From a virus (lineage: Duplodnaviria > Heunggongvirae > Uroviricota > Caudoviricetes): a stretch of 14,532 nt of DNA. The notes beneath the pieces were generated by a model that saw only the letters and a program-made list of their open reading frames with translations, was not told the origin of the DNA and made no database searches. Every line of letters begins with the position of its first letter. Positions within the stretch are counted from its first letter, which is position 1. A program made the translations under genes and the position numbers. This document shows, piece after piece, positions 1-14,532 of this stretch. The DNA lies in IMG/VR virus record IMGVR_UViG_3300032070_000001, positions 76,183 to 90,714 of that record; one strand, 5' to 3'.

Positions 1-1424
1 GTATTGGCCTCCACGATCACGCGAAGCAAGAAGTCCTGAAAATCGCGGCTGTTGTCCGTGGCCCCGGTGACCCAATGAGCGCACTCTTCGAGTGCCATCT
101 TCAGTACCATCTTGTTGATGCTACCCGCATGATCCAAAGCCAGATACACGCCAGTCTCATCGGCGAAACCCAACTCACGACTGCCAGCATTCATCACATC
201 CTGATAGCAGCCGACAAGCGGCTTTTCCTTGCCGTTGGTAAGACCGACCGCTTCAATCCAGCGCCACACCACATCCACTGCCTCCCGAGCAGCGTCGGTC
301 GCGGCCACTTTCTCGCGGCCCTTTTGCTCGTTGCTCGTGAGCACCGTCGCATCCGTCAAGACGCCAAAGTGGGCGGCGGCCTCCGCAAAGCTCGCCGAAG
401 AAATCGACTTAACATCGTAACCTTTCCTCTTCACGAAATCCGTCAAGGTATCAGAGGGGCTACAGAGAACGGCATCACCAGCCACAGCCTTCCACGCCCG
501 CTGCCAATGACTTTTCTGCTCGTCCTTTGGTTTCTCCCACGACGACATGATATAGTCCACATCCAACTGGCCCTCGAAGACCTGCCGCTGTGCAGCAAGC
601 GCTTGAAAAACAGGATACAATTCAGTAGCCGTGGCCCGCCGATACAGCCGGGCGGTCGCTGCACGAACGTAATACTCATTAGAATTGCGGCACTCGTCGA
701 TCTTCAATTCGTCGAGCCGAAAGTTGTAGTCGTAAACCGATTCGCGGTCGCTCTCTTCGATCTCACGGACATAGACGCCGCCCCGGTAGATCACAGCCGT
801 CTTCTTGCCATTCAGATTGCGGTCGGCCTTGGGTAAGAGCGACTGCTTAACCTGCTCTGGCCGCCCAGAGAAATGCAGAAATCGCTTTGGCAACTCGTGG
901 AGGAACTGTTCCACAGCAGCGTTTGTCTCAACATAGACGCGCGTGTAGCCGTCCCGGGCCTTGACCCGAGAGTCCTCGACCACAGCCACAGCCAAACGGC
1001 CATCCTGAATCGCCGAAAAGAACTCGCCGTTCTCCTCGCGGACGGTACGGTCGATAGCATTCGAGATGAACTCTCGCAGTGCCATCGCAATCTCGGTCCA
1101 ATCCAAGGCTCCGAAATCGAGCACCCACCCCAGGTCAATGGTCCTCGTGGATGTGCCTCCCAGCTTGCACATCACCCGCTTCACCGCCTTACGAGTCAAT
1201 CCATCGTCGATCTCGTCATCCCTGATATGAAAATCCAGGCGAGTCTTGCCACAGTAGACAAAGACCTTGACCCCGGCCCGCAAAAGCACGTTGATCGCGT
1301 GCTTGTTGCCGGAACCAAACTGACCGATGGTGCCCTCCACACCGCAATCCCGAGTGGTCGAGACACCAAGAAGAGTAAAGCCCTCAATCGGGGAGACGCC
1401 AGGATTCTGAATACAAAGAAACAT
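1..1424 (-). CDS. Permuted GHKL-type ATPase with C-terminal zincin-like motif, partial (3' end beyond window; >=474 aa)
   Basis: Not in the ORF track because no stop is in the window. Hand translation from ATG 1424 is open to base 3: MFLCIQNPGVSPIEGFTLLGVSTTRDCGVEGTIGQFGSGNKHAINVLL...ALREFISNAIDR...GYTRVYV...KMALEECAHWVTGATDNSRDFQDFLLRVIVEAN. It has a GxFGxG loop (aa 34-39), an ExxxNAxD N-box (aa 118-125) and EECAH (aa 446-450), and lies directly downstream of the promoter at 1474-1501. Confidence 0.85.
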   Translation of the reverse strand, partial: MFLCIQNPGVSPIEGFTLLGVSTTRDCGVEGTIGQFGSGNKHAINVLLRAGVKVFVYCGKTRLDFHIRDDEIDDGLTRKAVKRVMCKLGGTSTRTIDLGWVLDFGALDWTEIAMALREFISNAIDRTVREENGEFFSAIQDGRLAVAVVEDSRVKARDGYTRVYVETNAAVEQFLHELPKRFLHFSGRPEQVKQSLLPKADRNLNGKKTAVIYRGGVYVREIEESDRESVYDYNFRLDELKIDECRNSNEYYVRAATARLYRRATATELYPVFQALAAQRQVFEGQLDVDYIMSSWEKPKDEQKSHWQRAWKAVAGDAVLCSPSDTLTDFVKRKGYDVKSISSASFAEAAAHFGVLTDATVLTSNEQKGREKVAATDAAREAVDVVWRWIEAVGLTNGKEKPLVGCYQDVMNAGSRELGFADETGVYLALDHAGSINKMVLKMALEECAHWVTGATDNSRDFQDFLLRVIVEAN

Positions 1425-1473
1425 AGTTCAATCTCTCAAAGGTTGTTAATTCAATGATGCTCAACTCTATTCA

Positions 1474-1501
1474 AGCATACGTCAGAAGAGGCGAAAGTCA
1501 A
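1474..1501 (-). promoter_or_regulatory. Repeated sigma70-like promoter P1 (TTGACT-N16-TATGCT, then TGAATAG)
   Basis: Minus strand reads TTGACTttcgcctcttctgacgTATGCTtgaatag. Bases 1478-1502 are identical (25 nt) to 10842-10866. Confidence 0.8.
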
Positions 1502-1534
1502 GAAACCACCAAACACTTTTCCCGCCCTTGGAAG

Positions 1535-1752
1535 TCAGAATCGTGACGCTTGATAGGTCTGTAGAGCCTCGATTACCCCGGCCGCCCGCACCTTCGTCAC
1601 AATGGCATATTCCAGCGGGCCTACCGGCCGCTGGCAGATTGGACAACGTGGTCCCCCAAATACCACTTCACCGACGTTCGTGCCACGATGTCGGAGCCAC
1701 AGTCGCAGTTGATCCTGACGATGTAGAACGTCCGCCTCCGCTCTTGCGTCAT
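1535..1752 (-). pseudogene. Small zinc-ribbon protein (CDCG...CPIC, about 72 aa), interrupted by a 1-nt frameshift at the C5 run 1653-1657
   Basis: ATG 1752 overlaps the upstream stop (ATGA) and reads MTQERRRTFYIVRINCDCGSDIVARTSVKWYLG. One extra G gives GPRCPICQRPVGPLEYAIVTKVRAAGVIEALQTYQASRF*, completing two Cys pairs. Confidence 0.65.
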
Positions 1753-3191
1753 TGAAATACCTCGGGCTGTTCAAGAGCCAGACGGACGAAACGTGCGCCC
1801 ACGTCGGCCAGGGCCTTGTAGTAGCCCTCACTCAAATGGTCGCTCTCGTAATGATGAGCAAATTCATGGATCAATAGCCGGTTCACCTCGTCGGTGACGC
1901 CGTTCTCGAAGAATGCCCGGCCGCACCGAGAATAATTGAAAGTCAACCGACCCTTGCCATACGTTGCCCCGTAAGGCCAATGCGGCTCGCGAGCAAAGGT
2001 GACATCTATCACGGAGTCCAGCAGCAGGTTACCGATCCCCTCCGCATAATCGGCGATCTGCCACATCCCCTTGGTCCATTCGCTTTCGGGAATCAAGTCC
2101 AACGGTTTGCCCTCCGAGGAGTACGGCTTCGGACTCGGAGTGACGACGCCGGCCGCCGGCAGCACACCGGCCCGGCTCGCATTGGACCATTCGGCTGCCG
2201 TGAGGCTCCCGCCATAGACGACAGGCCGCCCTTCGGCGGCCGACCGCTTGTTGGCCTCCGGGTCCGAGGGATCGTAACGGACGGCGTTCTCGCCGAAACG
2301 AAGGGTCACGGCGGCCTTGACCGCCTCGATGCTGGCCCGTTCGTCGCTGCACGCCTCCCGCACCCACGTTTGCGGCGCGTCTTCCTTGTCAATCAGATGA
2401 TGGGTGGCATTCAGCACTGCCACGCGAAGCATCCGCAAATAGGCCGGCGTCACGTTGTCGCGGTCCATGTTGAGCGGCACCTTTTGTTGCACGTCCACAT
2501 GAAAGCGGTCGCCCGTCTCCACGACCGGGATGCCCATCTCGTAAAGCATCGCCGGCTCGCCCTCGACCGGCTCATAGACCCGCACCAGCGTCTTACGGAA
2601 AGTCTTCCGCAGCACACCCTCTTCATCGGCCACGACAGTCGGCAGGACCTCGTTGAAGAATGCTGCCGGAAAACGGTCTTCCAAAACACAGCCATTGTAG
2701 ATGGTGGCGATGTCGGCCGGTGGAATGAGCCGCTTCATGGCGGCATTGATTTCATTGAACTCGGCCTTCGTCATGGGCACGTCGGCCTCGAACCTTGAGC
2801 CGGCGTTACAGCGAGACGTGTGTGCATGGCGGCCGGTCGAATTGAACTCCACGGTCCCGCTGACCGTCTCAATCACGGCTCGTTTCGCCAGAGCCAACAC
2901 CAGCTTCTCGCCCAAGTTGAAACGGCCCCGCTGTTTGACATTGCCCTTCTTCCGACTCTCGGCAAATAGCGTATAAGCATCACGCAGGTCCGCAAAGCCT
3001 TCGGGGGCATCATCAACGACGACAATCCGCGCGTTGCGATTGCCTGGAAGTAACTTGACCGTGACCGCAACCTGAGTGACGCCCGCCTCATCCCAAGCGT
3101 TCTGCAACAACTCATAAAGCACGAACGCCTTCGACCGACCAGCCATCAGCTTCGCCAACCCACCTTTATCCACATCGAACCAAGCGGCCAT
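1749..3191 (-). CDS. GHKL (HATPase_c-like) ATPase fused to a C-terminal HExxH zincin-like domain, 480 aa
   Basis: N-box ELLQNAWD (aa 27-34), degenerate G1 VVVDDAPEG, G2 RGRFNLGEK and C-terminal LLIHEFAHHY. RBS AAGGAG, with promoter P2 just upstream. Confidence 0.85.
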   Translation of the reverse strand: MAAWFDVDKGGLAKLMAGRSKAFVLYELLQNAWDEAGVTQVAVTVKLLPGNRNARIVVVDDAPEGFADLRDAYTLFAESRKKGNVKQRGRFNLGEKLVLALAKRAVIETVSGTVEFNSTGRHAHTSRCNAGSRFEADVPMTKAEFNEINAAMKRLIPPADIATIYNGCVLEDRFPAAFFNEVLPTVVADEEGVLRKTFRKTLVRVYEPVEGEPAMLYEMGIPVVETGDRFHVDVQQKVPLNMDRDNVTPAYLRMLRVAVLNATHHLIDKEDAPQTWVREACSDERASIEAVKAAVTLRFGENAVRYDPSDPEANKRSAAEGRPVVYGGSLTAAEWSNASRAGVLPAAGVVTPSPKPYSSEGKPLDLIPESEWTKGMWQIADYAEGIGNLLLDSVIDVTFAREPHWPYGATYGKGRLTFNYSRCGRAFFENGVTDEVNRLLIHEFAHHYESDHLSEGYYKALADVGARFVRLALEQPEVFQ

Positions 3192-3224
3192 GATTGCTCC
3201 TTAATTATCTTTTTCCACTATTCA

Positions 3225-3252
3225 ATCATAGCACAAAAGACGCGAAAGTCAA
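3225..3252 (-). promoter_or_regulatory. Repeated sigma70-like promoter P2 (TTGACT-N16-TATGAT, extended -10 TG, then TGAATAG)
   Basis: Minus strand reads TTGACTttcgcgtcttttgtgcTATGATtgaatag, in the intergenic gap upstream of the GHKL gene. Confidence 0.8.
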
Positions 3253-3306
3253 GACGCTTACCTCAGAAACCAGCGATCGAACTTTGAACCGATGCCGACT
3301 ACCCCA

Positions 3307-3945: not shown

Positions 3946-4205
3946 GATTTCTCTCCTAGCCACAACTCAATTGCCGCTGCCTTGGCCTCCACCAGCAACA
4001 TGAAGCCGTGACCGTTCGAAGCCAGAGTCATCGGACCTTGGCCGTCTTCACGATGACTGGTGTAGTACGGGTAGATCGCCGTCGGATGCCCGCAATGGTG
4101 AACGTACACGTCGGTTGACTCGTCCAAGAAGAGCAACTGGTAGTGCCGCGCCGGCTTCACGCCCCAAGCCCGCCAAGTGAAGTTACTCTTCATTGCCATT
4201 GCCAT
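3942..4205 (-). CDS. Hypothetical protein (about 83-87 aa)
   Basis: Overlaps both neighbours in an operon-like chain. The exact start among three ATGs (4193-4205) is uncertain. Confidence 0.6.
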   Translation of the reverse strand: MAMAMKSNFTWRAWGVKPARHYQLLFLDESTDVYVHHCGHPTAIYPYYTSHREDGQGPMTLASNGHGFMLLVEAKAAAIELWLGEKS

Positions 4206-5162
4206 TCAAGAAGTCCACGACAGCCGGCCAGTGATGAGACACAAGACTCAACTGATCGCGGCCAGCTTGCACACGATCCAGGGCCTCCTGCCACAAGTCC
4301 CGATCCACATGTACCTCAACGGCCTCACGAATCAGACGTGCCATAACCGGCGGTTCTAAGGCATCGAGTTCCCAACTCTCATCGCCAAACTGCGCCCGAT
4401 ACTTCTCGCAGCGAGCATCCGTAGTCTTGGCGGGATTCGGTGACGGGTTATACTCTTCGATCTGTTCCCACGTCAAGGCGATACGATGAATAATGGCCGC
4501 CGAACCAAACAGTTCCAAACGATCCTGAATATCGCGTGTCATGTCCACGCCGGACGGATCATGGTCACCCAAATGAATAACCACAGTTTCCAACCCCGTC
4601 TTCTCATAGTCTCGAAGACGCTGCGCCGCTCCCACATCTCCGACTGGGACGTATAGCCCTTGCACGCGAAGAATGGCACCTGCAACTCAGTGCAAATGAA
4701 CTCGATCACGCCGATCAAAGCCTCCTTCTCGATCCAGACCTCCAGCCGCTTCGACTGCTCGGCCCACAAGTCCACCGTGTACTGATCGGCACATGCGCTG
4801 ATGATCGAATGCGGACTAGCCCACGTCGAGTGGGTTTGCAGATTCCGGGTGCGATCCTCAATCGCCAGCCAGTCGATCAGGCCCGCCAGGCGGCCGTCAT
4901 TGATGATGTCCCCGAGCCACTTGTAATTCGGCTCGGCGTTCTTCGTTCCGTTCGGATCACGAACCCACTTGTTGGTGTCTGGTATCCGCCGCCACTTCCG
5001 GTCGTCCGGGAACAAGTCCTTGGCGACAAACTGATAGTACAACTGCCGCAACGTCAGCTTGAAACCCTGCCGCTGGTAGTCCACGATGATCTTGTTCGCC
5101 TTCTGGATCATCGCCAGGGTATCGGGACGGAACGCCTTGGATACGTAGCAAATCTTGGCCAT
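4183..5162 (-). pseudogene. Topo VIA/Spo11-like (5Y-CAP + Toprim; Mini-A-type) protein, about 326 aa, split by a 1-nt frameshift at the C3 run 4631-4633
   Basis: The 5' frame (4539..5162) has TLRQLYY, matching the TxRxxYY catalytic-Tyr motif, and EVWIEKEAL (Toprim Glu). The 3' frame (4183..4665) has VIHLGDHDPSG (Toprim DxD). One extra G joins them as ...KGYTSQSEMWGAAQRLRDYEK. Confidence 0.8.
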
Positions 5163-6359: not shown

Positions 6360-6896
6360 TTAGTTTCTGCTCTGACGTTTCCACTTTCGTCGATGCTTCG
6401 ACTGATCGGCCATCGGTATCCACCGACAATTCGATGGACAATAGTTTCGATTATTGTTTCGTCGCTCAATCGTAAGCGGATATCGGTAGCCGCTTTCTTT
6501 TGCCCACACCGCAAAATTCTCAAACACCTGCCAAGTACGACAGACCTTGATCCCTCGTTCCCCGTAGTACCGGTAACTCGCCGTGCGCGGATATTCGCAC
6601 CGCCGCCGCATGTTGACCCAAGTTGTATAGAGGCGTGTGTGTCGTTGCCCGTGCGTCGTCGCTTTCTTAACTGAAACCTCGCGTCGAAGACAACCACATG
6701 ATCGAACACGCCCAGCTAAGAGATGATGTTCCCACACTTCTTTCGTCACGCCGCAATCACAACGCACTGGCACAGCCCGAAGGTAACACGACTTTGTAGC
6801 GCCGCACCGCCAGAGCAGTTTTGCCGTGCCAACTACCGTGAGACGACCAAACTTAGCTCCAACACAGCAATCGCAACGTTTACCCATCCTCGCCAT
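6360..6896 (-). CDS. Free-standing HNH-type homing endonuclease (phage type)
   Basis: Family motifs KFGRLTV, RCDCG, SCGC, HG..TRLY..W.NM..RC, YG.RGIKVC..W and TIERRNN...Y.PSNCRW. The start (6887, 6896 or 6929) is uncertain. Confidence 0.85.
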   Translation of the reverse strand: MARMGKRCDCCVGAKFGRLTVVGTAKLLWRCGATKSCYLRAVPVRCDCGVTKEVWEHHLLAGRVRSCGCLRREVSVKKATTHGQRHTRLYTTWVNMRRRCEYPRTASYRYYGERGIKVCRTWQVFENFAVWAKESGYRYPLTIERRNNNRNYCPSNCRWIPMADQSKHRRKWKRQSRN

Positions 6897-7488
6897 CGTC
6901 CTCACCTTCCTCTTCACCTTCCTCTTCAATCATCGGACTGCCACAAGCACAAGTAGGACAACCCACCTCGTCGATAGCCTTCCGACTCATTCGACAAATA
7001 CAACCACACGTCGAGCAAATCACCTTCAAGAGCCGACACTTCTGACTCTTCGGTGCGTTGGAGTGCTTCAACTCCGCGTGCGGATACGGGCCGATCGCGT
7101 CCGTCATCTCCTGCAAATGCGCCCGCAGCGTCTCACCAGCCGCCGTCTCTGTCATCTTGCCTTCCAGGCCAAGGGCATGGGCCGCCCGGGGAAACTGTCC
7201 CCGGTGCCCGTCCTCGACGCCCACCGCACAATGGACCAGTTCGTGAACCAGGGTCACGGCTACGTGGATCGGGTCCTTCAAGACCGGACTGATGAAAACC
7301 TCCGAGGTCCCGTCGCCGCTATTCTTCGACGACCAACACTCACCTGTCCGACGCCTCTTCTTCGCCAAGCCGCTCTTCGACGGCCACGAGCATGAGGCCC
7401 GAATCTTCTCTGGCAAGGGGTGGCCCGCCTTCTCGAAGTCAAGACGAAGCCGCTGGATGCACTCGTTCAACCACTGCTCGCGATTCAT
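6880..7488 (-). CDS. SprT-like zinc metalloprotease (202 aa)
   Basis: TLVHELVH (HExxH) followed by GH.GQF, a C-terminal CxxCG...CxCG zinc ribbon and an acidic tail. Confidence 0.85.
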   Translation of the reverse strand: MNREQWLNECIQRLRLDFEKAGHPLPEKIRASCSWPSKSGLAKKRRRTGECWSSKNSGDGTSEVFISPVLKDPIHVAVTLVHELVHCAVGVEDGHRGQFPRAAHALGLEGKMTETAAGETLRAHLQEMTDAIGPYPHAELKHSNAPKSQKCRLLKVICSTCGCICRMSRKAIDEVGCPTCACGSPMIEEEGEEEGEDDGEDG

Positions 7489-11835: not shown

Positions 11836-12582
11836 TTAGGCGAATCGGTCGAGTATTCTCCAAACCAAGATTGCCGTGAACGCCTTGCCCTCCCGGCTCT
11901 TGCATCCACGCTCGTTGAGCGCCGCTGCGACCGCCGCCAACGTCTTCCCGGCCTGCCGCAGCGATTGAATCTCCGGCAAAACGAACTCGTAAGCCGCGCG
12001 AGCCTCGGCCAGACGATTCGCCGCCGACGCCACAACTGCCTGTTTCCAACCCCGCAGATGCTCGCGGCCGTCCCAATGCCCGGGACGCGCGGACCCCAGC
12101 TTCACGCCCCGCGCCTGCAGACTGTCCAAGGCCGCCTTGGTCCGCAGTCCGATCCGGCGGGCCTCTTCCTCGGCGAAGGCCGCCTCGATATGCAGCCGCA
12201 ACCGGTCGGCGTCCGGCCGATCCGCACAGATGAAAGGAACCTTGCTCTCCATCAGATTCGAGATGAAGTTGAGATTCCGAGCCAACCGGTCCAGCTTGGC
12301 GACAACCAAAATGCCCCCGACCATGCGGGCGTGCGCCAAAGCCTTCCGCAACTCCGGCCTGGCTGACTTCTTACCAGTCTCAACCTCCGTGTACGCCCCG
12401 GCGATGGAGCCTTTGAGGTTATCCACCAACCTACCCGCATCCCGTTTCTGGGCATCCAGACCCAAGCCGGTCGCGTTCTCATTCAACTCGTTCTCCGTTA
12501 TGGACTCACCCCGCCGAAGCCGCCACCAGGCATCAGTCTGTTTCTTTGTGCTGACCCGGTAATAGCAGACGTAGGGTTTCAT
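11836..12582 (-). CDS. Serine recombinase (resolvase/invertase catalytic domain), canonical, 248 aa
   Basis: YYRVST..Q, GLGLDAQ, YTEVETG, RPEL..AL, AKLDRLARN and EEEARRIGLRTKAAL, with a C-terminal helical DNA-binding region. Confidence 0.93.
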   Translation of the reverse strand: MKPYVCYYRVSTKKQTDAWWRLRRGESITENELNENATGLGLDAQKRDAGRLVDNLKGSIAGAYTEVETGKKSARPELRKALAHARMVGGILVVAKLDRLARNLNFISNLMESKVPFICADRPDADRLRLHIEAAFAEEEARRIGLRTKAALDSLQARGVKLGSARPGHWDGREHLRGWKQAVVASAANRLAEARAAYEFVLPEIQSLRQAGKTLAAVAAALNERGCKSREGKAFTAILVWRILDRFA

Positions 12583-12617
12583 CAGTGCCTCTCAAAGGTG
12601 CAAGATCGTTGCTTTGC

Positions 12618-13364
12618 CTACCGCCTCACATGCGCCATCTTCCGTATGTTGTTGCCGAGCCACTCGTCCCCCAAGTAGCGCTTAATCAGCCGCCACACGG
12701 CCGTCTGCGTGAAGGGCATTCCCACCGTCGTAGTATGCCCCGTCTGGTTCAACCACTCGACGATCTCGGGAAGCGTATCCCCGCGTTCTCGCCGAACCTT
12801 GATCTCAGGAATCAGATAGGCATAGGCATTCCGTGTCTTGTCCCGGTGCGCTTTGGCCGCCGCCACAATGGCTTCCTTCGTCCCTCGATGCCGGCCCTTC
12901 CAATGCCCAGGACGATTGGAACCAAGTTTCACGCCACGGGCCTTAGCTGCCACCAGGGCCGCTTTCGTCCGTTCGCTGATCCGACGCGATTCCTTATCCG
13001 CCAAGGCGGCCAGAACGTGGACAGTCAAGTGATTGGCCTTGGGCATGTCACACGCCACGAACTCCACCCCGCTGTCTCGCAGAAGGGCCGTGACGTAGGT
13101 ATTGCGACTCAACCGGCCCAGCCGCGGAATGACTAACGTGGCTCTTGAAGCGAGGGCGGCCTCCACGGCAGCCTGCAACTCCGGACGATAGGTTGCCCGC
13201 TGACCTGTCGCCGTCCGTCGCTCAGTCGTCGATTCGTTCTCGGTGAACTCAGCGAGGACCTTACCATCGTTGACTGCCACGAAACGCCGTGTATTCGTCT
13301 CCTGCTCGGCTCGCGGATACTTGCGACTTCGGCGATAGTAGACCACGTACTCGTTTGGCGTCAT
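12618..13364 (-). CDS. Serine recombinase paralogue with degenerate motifs (248 aa from MTPNEY; track start 13394)
   Basis: YYRRS (Ser kept), RPELQAA, PRLGRLSRN (D to G), KESRRISERTKAAL and GVKLGSNRPGHW. GAGGA precedes ATG 13364. Confidence 0.88.
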   Translation of the reverse strand: MTPNEYVVYYRRSRKYPRAEQETNTRRFVAVNDGKVLAEFTENESTTERRTATGQRATYRPELQAAVEAALASRATLVIPRLGRLSRNTYVTALLRDSGVEFVACDMPKANHLTVHVLAALADKESRRISERTKAALVAAKARGVKLGSNRPGHWKGRHRGTKEAIVAAAKAHRDKTRNAYAYLIPEIKVRRERGDTLPEIVEWLNQTGHTTTVGMPFTQTAVWRLIKRYLGDEWLGNNIRKMAHVRR

Positions 13365-13400
13365 AGGTTTCCTCGATGTTTTCGTTACAGCCACTACTCA

Positions 13401-14268: not shown

Positions 14269-14416
14269 AAATCCCCTGGTAGCGGGGGAGGCATGGCTGA
14301 TTCATGTTCAGTACCTTTCTATGTGGGGTGATGATTTGGTCCTTCGGGACTTTCATTTGATAGGGGGTTAGTTACCACCTCGATATGATGCCCTCTGTTG
14401 GACGGTATGAGTTTGG

Positions 14417-14532
14417 GCCGCCCGGACCCGCCGCCCGGACCCGCCGCCCGGACCCGCCGCCCGGACCCGCCGCCCGGACCCGCCGCCCGGACCCGCCGCC
14501 CGGACCCGCCGCCCGGACCCGCCGCCCGGACC
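14417..14532. repeat. Perfect 13-nt tandem array (GCCGCCCGGACCC) x 8.9, running off the window end
   Basis: Eight full copies plus 12/13 of a ninth. The unit length is not a multiple of 3. Confidence 0.97.

Follow-up and report, generated by a model that had tools for sequence, protein, structure and literature searches.

Two neighbouring genes, named A and B here, were identified in the window, a stretch of 14,532 nucleotides (nt) at the end of an IMG/VR phage record of 90.7 kb (IMGVR_UViG_3300032070_000001, CheckV 87%). The phage is temperate, and its host belongs to the Planctomycetes by the names of close homologues. The reading favoured here, and held to be rather probable as a whole, is that A and B are distant paralogues within one superfamily of phages and mobile elements, built from a GHKL ATPase domain, an S5 transducer, a helical linker and a minimal zincin of about 110 residues of the Wss1/SprT/M48 type. 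Both would be clamp-type ATPases carrying a mini-zincin, with A as an ATP-gated protease and B as a derived form, and the two would not make an obligate pair.

1749..3191, minus strand: gene A, 480 amino acids (aa), an intact open reading frame (ORF), from its translation
1..1424, minus strand: gene B, 481 aa, intact, with the last 7 codons and the stop past the left edge of the window

The part of gene B inside the window (3-1424) encodes 474 aa, its ORF ends 21 nt beyond the left edge, and the full ORF lies at 1477-2922 of L001, which is the own locus of the window phage (the labels L001, L003, L010 and so on are those of the fetched loci). A and B are separated by 324 nt which hold a small CxC...CxxC gene and a promoter-like element. 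Two GHKL and zincin fusion genes of about 480 aa had been proposed in the original prediction from the letters of the window, and both ORFs are present on the minus strand with 480 and 481 aa. The quoted metal-motif strings were found as well (HEFAHHYESDH at 1836-1868 and EECAHWVTGATD at 54-89), and the motif order, read by position from both translations, is canonical in A and permuted in B, as had been claimed.

In gene A, the GHKL domain covers aa 1 to about 170 and is followed by an S5/transducer-like domain (about 171-300), a helical linker and the mini-zincin (about 371-480). The following motifs were located.

3090..3113, minus strand: N-box ELLQNAWD of A, aa 27-34, with E27 as catalytic base, N31 as Mg ligand, and D34
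2904..3014, minus strand: G1 (D60-D-A-P-E-G65), ATP lid and G2 (RGRFNLGEK, aa 88-96) of A
2478..2489, minus strand: QQKV loop of A (Q236, K237) with the candidate switch lysine
1836..1868, minus strand: metal motif HEFAHHYESDH of A (H442, E443, H446, H452), of the form HExxHx5H

The canonical GHKL order of N-box, G1 with the adenine-binding Asp, and G2 was present in A, and its residues were kept without exception in 32 relatives of 51-80% identity: E27, N31 and D34 of the N-box, and D60, G65, R88, G89, R90, F91, G94, E95 and K96 of G1 and G2, were invariant in 32/32. Q236 and K237 were also invariant in all 32, and by comparison with the GyrB and Topo VI-B structures the QQK loop is a candidate counterpart of the QTK loop of GyrB. 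Pfam HATPase_c matched residues 24-141 of A (E 1.7e-5, slightly under the curated cut-off), and NCBIfam sacsin-N matched within the same residues (E 3.6e-5). HATPase_c or HATPase_c_3 could be found in 26-28 of the 32 members, with E values down to 2.7e-7, and Pfam SACS matched A members too.

The AlphaFold2 (AF2) model of A had a predicted local distance difference test score (pLDDT) of 83.8, with low confidence in lid residues 72-91. Residues 1-300 aligned with T6 topo II, GyrB, TRAP1, Topo VI-B and MutL at VIA Z 13-14.5; for GyrB, TRAP1 and T6 topo II the root-mean-square deviation was 2.8-4.5 A over 143-241 aligned residues. With T6 topo II, Topo VI-B and MutL the alignments continued into the transducer domain, up to residues 270-300 of A. 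The top Foldseek rank was taken by Hsp90/TRAP1 (E 5.8e-12 for TRAP1).

The C-terminal domain of A carries HExxH with a third metal ligand, as zincins do, and H442, E443, H446 and H452 were invariant in 32/32. HExxHx5H is the spacing of Wss1/WLM and the metzincins. Minimal zincins are laid out as a helix, three strands, the HExxH helix and a final helix, and the elements predicted for A follow in that order. The PDB re-alignment of A was filled by GHKL matches, so this domain was placed by profile, hhalign and Atlas evidence. The family profile matched the minimal zincin 3e11 weakly (E 0.21, 89 residues including HExxH), and the WLM profile matched one of the 32 members (E 0.046) and not gene A itself. 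An Atlas model of residues 355-480 gave query template modelling (TM) scores, moderate in size, of 0.64 to M48 and 0.52-0.56 to YgjP and SprT-type proteins, and 0.76-0.85 to stand-alone viral proteins of 100-190 aa. Profile matches, fold matches and the invariant HExxHx5H bear out the fusion architecture that had been proposed for A. The family is large, with matches to more than 4,000 clusters at 90% identity; no PHROG matched A at E 0.1, and a DNA search in phages returned a sole match of 139 nt (71%), to one uncultured jumbo phage.

Gene B encodes a motif-permuted GHKL domain, an S5-like domain, a helical region and a C-terminal zincin-like domain with EExxH.

1302..1424, minus strand: N-terminus of B with the G1-like MFLCIQNPG (IQNPG at aa 5-9, N7), the lid, and G2 GQFGSGNK at aa 34-41
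1047..1076, minus strand: relocated N-box REFISNAIDR of B, aa 117-126 (E118, N122, D125)
54..89, minus strand: variant metal motif EECAHWVTGATD of B (E446, E447, H450, D457)

Conservation was read from 144 diverse relatives of B; the relatives of A and B together span 31-80% identity, and motifs kept this strictly in both sets are no coincidence. The order of N-box, G1 and G2 that is canonical for GHKL proteins was not found in B, and the permuted order is kept family-wide, including in gp29 of Pseudomonas phage YuA. The glycine-rich G2 (G34, F36, G37, G39 and K41, each kept in 138-144 of 144) and the N-box with its catalytic Glu and Mg-binding Asn (E118, N122 and D125, each 144/144) are present. 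The adenine-contacting Asp of G1, the switch lysine and HExxH, which are canonical in GHKL proteins and zincins, are all lacking in B. N7 was Asn in 138 and Ser in 6 of the 144, and never Asp; as judged from the start of the VIA alignment, it probably corresponds to D68 of MORC2. Position 241, that of the would-be switch lysine, was variable (K 25, E 22, R 20, Q 16 and others), with D243, E244 and R246 invariant close by. In the metal motif, E446 was kept in 134 of 144 (His in 3), E447 in 131, and H450 and D457 in 134 each. Since the permuted order, the change from Asp to Asn and the EExxH...D motif are kept across the 144 relatives, they are conserved features and B is not a decayed gene. B is taken to be functional, with nucleotide and metal chemistry that are probably altered.

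The AF2 model of B, built from the 144 diverse sequences, reached pLDDT 97.1 and a predicted TM score of 0.90. Four beta strands precede its helix 112-130, which bears the N-box. GRP94, MORC2, SMCHD1 and topo II aligned with the first 280 residues or so of B, over about 200 residues, at Z 6.5-7.3, which is middling on the own scale of VIA, and Foldseek gave E 1.1e-4 against TRAP1. The fold matches begin partway into the GHKL domain, with residue 1 of B aligned to residue 62 of MORC2. For the C-terminal domain (residues 372-475) the Z values were moderate: 7.2 for jannalysin (87 of 104 residues), 7.1 for abylysin, 6.8 for SPRTN (6mdx), 6.0 for HtpX and 5.5 for Wss1 (5ln5). In alignments with the minimal zincins, the helix bearing the metal motif is matched to their HExxH helix. 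With jannalysin at Z 7.2 for B and M48 at TM 0.64 for A, both C-terminal domains model as zincins, as had been expected of them.

No model of Pfam or NCBIfam matched B, the Pfam scan covering 32 relatives of B too, and the only PHROG matches were phrog_8203 (E 6.5e-19) and phrog_6077, both without a function. In this way the profile libraries miss the conserved Bergerat rearrangement, and B is invisible to standard annotation. The B family comprises 2,590 representative clusters at 50% identity. In the AlphaFold Database, eukaryotic proteins matched the B model near full length (E 1e-7 to 1e-11), among them uncharacterised fungal proteins, a RING-domain protein of a mollusc and a fragment with a WLM domain, and a rotifer DUF3684 cluster surfaced in a separate Atlas feature search, giving hints that eukaryotic proteins of the GHKL-plus-zincin-like type exist.

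The relationship of A and B is visible at the level of domains only: BLASTP of A against B gave nothing significant and whole-length hhalign aligned the N-box alone (probability 2.9%), while hhalign of the C-terminal domains gave a probability of 65% (E 6e-5) over the HExxH/EExxH helix and the next helix. The N-terminal hhalign was sub-significant (probability 2.2%); it nevertheless paired, convincingly, TLFAES..RGRFNLGEK of A with TLLGVS..IGQFGSGNK of B in the lid and G2 region, and YEMGIPVVE..VDVQQKVPLNMDR of A with IYRGGVYVRE..YDYNF..LKIDECR of B in the first S5 strands. In addition, the C-termini of A (355-480) and B (365-481) shared the same three nearest Atlas clusters, with scores of 0.92-0.95. 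These clusters hold stand-alone viral mini-zincins of 91-190 aa, with 75-602 members each, and the C-terminal domain thus looks like a mobile module in phages.

A third family, named C, was met on large contigs of phages, 148-435 kb in length, where its genes of 450-485 aa stand beside an A gene or close to one.

L014:6031-7380, minus strand: family C gene
L048:10517-11971, minus strand: family C gene
L034:1601-2977, minus strand: family C gene

The C genes have the canonical motif order and HExxH, and two of the three have (E/Q)NxG at G1. The hidden Markov model of family C matched 12 members of B and none of A. From these sequence features, C appears nearer to B than to A, and could possibly represent the unpermuted ancestor type of B.

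On the proposed mechanism, A would most likely be a homodimeric clamp which closes upon ATP binding, and closure may position or gate a C-terminal metalloprotease that would depend on its Glu. Host proteins or DNA-bound proteins would be the obvious candidate targets, the latter on the model of MORC, which clamps DNA, and of the DNA-dependent proteases Wss1/SPRTN. B may be seen as the derived form, in which the N-box helix would have moved behind G1/G2, Asp would have become Asn, the switch lysine would have been lost and the first zinc-binding His replaced by Glu. With the catalytic Glu and the Mg-binding Asn kept, B may differ in how it binds nucleotide, or may work without hydrolysing it, and its Glu/His/Asp site may hold a different metal.

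Whether the two genes belong together was judged from their distribution. Among 81 A loci (the 80 best from viral contigs and that of the window phage, +/-8 kb), B was found within 8 kb of A in 7 and C near A in 3. A was near B in 4 of 66 viral B loci, on the same contigs as the A-side pairs, and in 2 of 42 bacterial B loci, nearly all of which are from metagenome-assembled genomes of Planctomycetota. When whole records were searched, with the genome of the window recovered as the positive control, none of 9 B records contained A, and 8 A records yielded no B apart from one weak match to C. Two complete records (G002 and G005) carry B without A and another (G007) carries A without B. In the GenBank phage collection, B-family genes occurred in 68 records, including 52 of Pseudomonas and 9 of Bordetella phages, and A in one uncultured jumbo phage only; in the 67 B-family records that come from named (cultured) phages, tblastn detected no A. 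As a rule one family is present without the other, and A and B are therefore probably not an obligate pair.

Within the Planctomycetes phage group the gene order is an SprT-like gene, an optional Mini-A gene, an optional A and then B, and A is gained or lost beside the more constant B; relatives with a B 72% identical to gene B (L082, L108) are without A. A quick maximum-likelihood tree of A placed all B-paired A genes in one 12-member clade with support 100, of which eight members have B and four do not. Clustered ORFs around the 80 A and 66 B loci were kept as neighbours only among closely related phages. Of the co-occurrence that the original prediction had expected to see elsewhere, one A clade with both gene orders was recovered, but the two families are mostly found alone. 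The adjacency in a few lineages exceeds what would be random, and may reflect an accessory-gene hotspot or real cooperation; cooperation of A and B in particular lineages is possible.

Several points weigh against the favoured reading. Its ATPase and protease activities are putative, being deduced from motifs and folds, and helix 112-130 of B, on account of the invariant motif that it carries, presumably fills the canonical N-box position. Nucleases such as YbeY have a zincin fold too, and YbeY-type chains were among the structural matches of B (1oz9 at Z 5.8, 7y7o at 5.6 and 1xm5 at 5.0). For the pair, every co-occurrence of A and B was an adjacency within 2.5 kb, sometimes with a spacing of about 150 nt or with an overlap (L004, L010), and in both orders, with A then B in six loci and B then A in L010 and L153. 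The divergence of A and B runs in step, with identities of about 60% for A and about 42% for B between two subclades. In addition, three A genes from different parts of the A tree adjoin or neighbour a C-type paralogue. Adjacency, correlated divergence and the recurrence beside C argue for some functional link, for which a reading as independent genes does not account.

An obligate heterodimer, joined through the GHKL domains on ATP into a single ATP-gated protease or remodeller in which B might be regulatory, would account for this adjacency in either order and for the correlated divergence. The spacing in L004, L010 and L015 would permit co-transcription, A recurs beside or near C in L014, L048 and L034, and the altered G1 residue and missing switch lysine of B would fit an asymmetric partner. 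Against this, most loci and several complete genomes carry one family; four members of the pair-bearing clade have no B nearby, two of them having been searched over the whole record with no B found; the relatives L082 and L108 have B without A; and in the window phage each gene has a promoter of its own. The heterodimer is accordingly considered improbable, and of the functional pair in the original prediction what stands is the adjacency of A and B where both are present. A prediction of the A+B complex at full length (alignments A1 and A3) had a score of 0.00 against a mark of 0.32, and counts neither way. It is similarly doubtful that side-by-side A and B or C genes form asymmetric ATP-driven clamp-proteases with the permuted B as the regulatory half, and that B is the first case of a naturally permuted Bergerat fold; in such an assembly the B half would be non-hydrolysing or differently liganded at its Glu/His/Asp metal site.

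The YbeY matches of B also suggest an alternative in which the C-terminal zincin-fold domain is a YbeY-like, ATP-regulated nuclease, and the protein a functional analogue of MutL or paraMORC, in which a metal-dependent endonuclease follows the GHKL and S5 domains. The His residues of A are spaced 0, +4 and +10, with an Asp at +9, and the YbeY motif is HxxxHx5H. GHKL+S5 proteins of mobile elements reportedly often carry nuclease effectors, a statement ascribed to Iyer, Abhiman and Aravind in 2008. However, a Glu directly after the first metal ligand is the general base of peptidases, and YbeY is not known to have one there; this Glu is kept in A (E443, 32/32) and in B (E447, 131/144). The top structural matches were peptidases too (jannalysin and abylysin at Z 7.1-7.2, SPRTN at 6.8, HtpX at 6.0, and M48 at TM 0.64). 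Given this Glu and the stronger matches to peptidases, a nuclease is less likely, and it is regarded as an unlikely alternative to the ATP-gated protease preferred here.

Each gene was preceded by its own copy of a promoter-like repeat, and a small Zn-ribbon gene was expected between them.

3211..3257, minus strand: promoter-like repeat before gene A, with TTGACT, 16 nt, TATGAT and an extended TG
1460..1506, minus strand: promoter-like repeat before gene B, with TTGACT, 16 nt and TATGCT
1535..1752, minus strand: small Zn-ribbon gene (CDC...CPIC), in two reading frames here

The sigma70-like repeat occurs in four copies in the window, with about 35 conserved bases and a 16-nt spacer, and the consensus over the four is TTGACTTTCGC.TCTT.TG...TA...TTGAATAG. 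The copy before A belongs to repeat family D2, was aligned with the other three, and gave 10/12 matches in a promoter scan. One copy before each gene, as had been predicted, indicates separate transcription of A and B, and the two are real genes, promoted separately. The motif before A or B was not kept in related phages.

The predicted Zn-ribbon gene and promoter are both present between A and B, but the Zn-ribbon ORF is frameshifted in the assembly. Its start overlaps the stop of A (ATGA, 1752), and the break sits at a TTTGGGGG run at about 1653-1660, where joining the CDC and CPIC halves requires a -1 shift at T_TTG_GGG, which is in register. A programmed -1 frameshift was rejected because the gene is a single uninterrupted ORF of 147 aa in the relative L003 (L003:1505-1948). 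An assembly error or indel, or a recent mutation, is more likely, as the ORF of L003 is intact and the Mini-A gene of the window is likewise frameshifted and intact in relatives.

4183-5162, minus strand: Mini-A (Topo VI A-like) gene with RQLYYQ and GDHDPSG, split into two frames

Mini-A lies about 1 kb upstream of A on the same strand, and at least 20 related loci have it as a single ORF of about 320 aa. The paper which defined Mini-A did not find a partner with the Bergerat fold and left a non-canonical 'Mini-B' open (PMC7671362). A or B, or both, could be taken for this missing GHKL-transducer half of a split machine of the type IIB topoisomerase kind, as Mini-A directly precedes A or B in relatives, adjoins distant A genes in L043, L071 and L219, and A matched Topo VI-B at Z 13.2-13.4. 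However, the Topo VI-B scores are no higher than those of GyrB, MutL and Hsp90, and a protease-like tail is foreign to any topoisomerase B subunit. Of the best 80 among more than 520 Mini-A loci, 73 had none of A, B and C in a span of 6 kb, and six of the other seven belong to this one phage group; Mini-A is also absent from most A and B loci. These neighbourhood counts mean that A and B are not general partners of Mini-A. The partnership was largely refuted by them, and the 'Mini-B' explanation is very improbable.

The paralogues A and B can be compared with several known systems. MORC, paraMORC and MutL have the same Bergerat ATPase followed by an S5 domain, with a different C-terminal effector, and MORC2, MORC3, SMCHD1 and MutL were among the structural matches of A and B; dimerisation driven by ATP, as in MORC and MutL, is the working principle to be expected for A and B too. 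They differ in having a mini-zincin as effector, in a similarity that is marginal (HATPase_c and HATPase_c_3 near threshold), and in the rearranged motif order of B, which Pfam missed. The compact arrangement of a helix, a three-stranded sheet, the HExxH helix and a further helix is shared with Wss1/WLM, SprT/SPRTN, the minigluzincins, M48/HtpX and 3e11. Unlike in Wss1 and SPRTN, the domain of A and B is fused to an ATPase and not to SHP, VIM, SIM or Zn-finger DNA-binding modules, and in B the first His is replaced by Glu, with an Asp as the likely third ligand.

Hsp90, TRAP1 and sacsin are close by Foldseek, which ranked them at the top for both models, and sacsin-N and SACS match A members. 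However, A and B lack the C-terminal dimerisation domain and the MEEVD of Hsp90, and with low TM scores of 0.2-0.4 the resemblance is confined to the N-terminal and middle modules. Phage T4 rIIA is, like A and B, a phage-encoded, non-structural protein with an N-terminal GHKL domain and a variable C-terminus, and rIIA proteins were among the viral structure matches of B (E about 1e-3 to 1e-2, TM about 0.25). The rIIA proteins are a poorly understood counter-defence family (PMC7824862). They differ from A and B in their size of about 700 aa and in having no zincin tail, and in the PHROG search the rIIA PHROG matched neither A nor B. With the PADLOC defence models, A had a marginal match to TmtA (E 0.0095) and B had none, and the assignment of A or B to a known defence protein was rejected on this ground. 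A literature search, with subscription journals outside it, found no paper on a GHKL-zincin fusion or on a permuted Bergerat/GHKL fold, in agreement with the earlier statement that no characterised system has this architecture. As far as could be found, the A and B families are large and unstudied.

Both families occur in phages, prophages and some plasmids, and B has cultured representatives. Gp29 of Pseudomonas phage YuA (NC_010116, L148:4998-6176) is a full-length B member of 392 aa, annotated as a hypothetical protein only; hhalign to family B gave a probability of 99.7% (E 3.7e-25). It has the permuted order of NKG, GFFGTG and then RELYCNTMD, with the metal motif EEFIH...D. Its gene follows a primase gene, behind an annotated phage-cofactor-dependent sigma70 promoter, and orthologues are found in MP1412, PAE1 and phages of Bordetella, with 52 records for Pseudomonas phages and 9 for those of Bordetella. 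Compared with gene B, gp29 is shorter in the middle region, and an A-type gene is absent in those phages. A homologue of A (WP_011831646) was found on plasmid RPME01 of Methylibium petroleiphilum in a phage-like block (L271, 227-243 kb), together with two orphan DNA methyltransferases, Gp37/Gp68, dUTPase, DUF4326, NADAR and DUF1064. This megaplasmid context fits an accessory or counter-defence role for A, which is putative, as is the early role in anti-defence or host takeover raised in the original prediction.

GHKL+S5 clamps such as MutL, MORC, Hsp90 and the type II topoisomerases are among the best-studied molecular machines, and the mini-zincins Wss1 and SPRTN are key proteases for DNA-bound proteins. 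ATP-gated proteolysis of host proteins, if this is what A and B carry out, would make them a new class of takeover or counter-defence enzyme in phages. The presence of family B in well-known Pseudomonas aeruginosa phages makes knockout and assay feasible, and the tandem is chiefly useful as a natural side-by-side of a canonical and a derived form. Newly added by the present analysis are the relationship of A and B at the level of domains, family C as an intermediate, the counts by which the tandem is lineage-specific, and the cultured representatives.

Three further features were observed elsewhere in the window.

6880-7488, minus strand: gene of an apparent stand-alone SprT-like zincin, 202 aa, with HELVHCAVGVEDGH and a C-terminal CxxC...CxxC ribbon
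11836-13394, minus strand: two adjacent serine-recombinase (Resolvase) genes
14391-14520: tandem array of a 13-nt unit, GCCGCCCGGACCC

The SprT-like gene is kept upstream of B in about 27 related loci and stands directly before B in L082, L094, L096 and L114. The two recombinase genes matched PF00239 with E values of 1.3e-18 and 2.5e-13, and the tandem array, with about 8 copies of its unit, lies at the very end of the contig.

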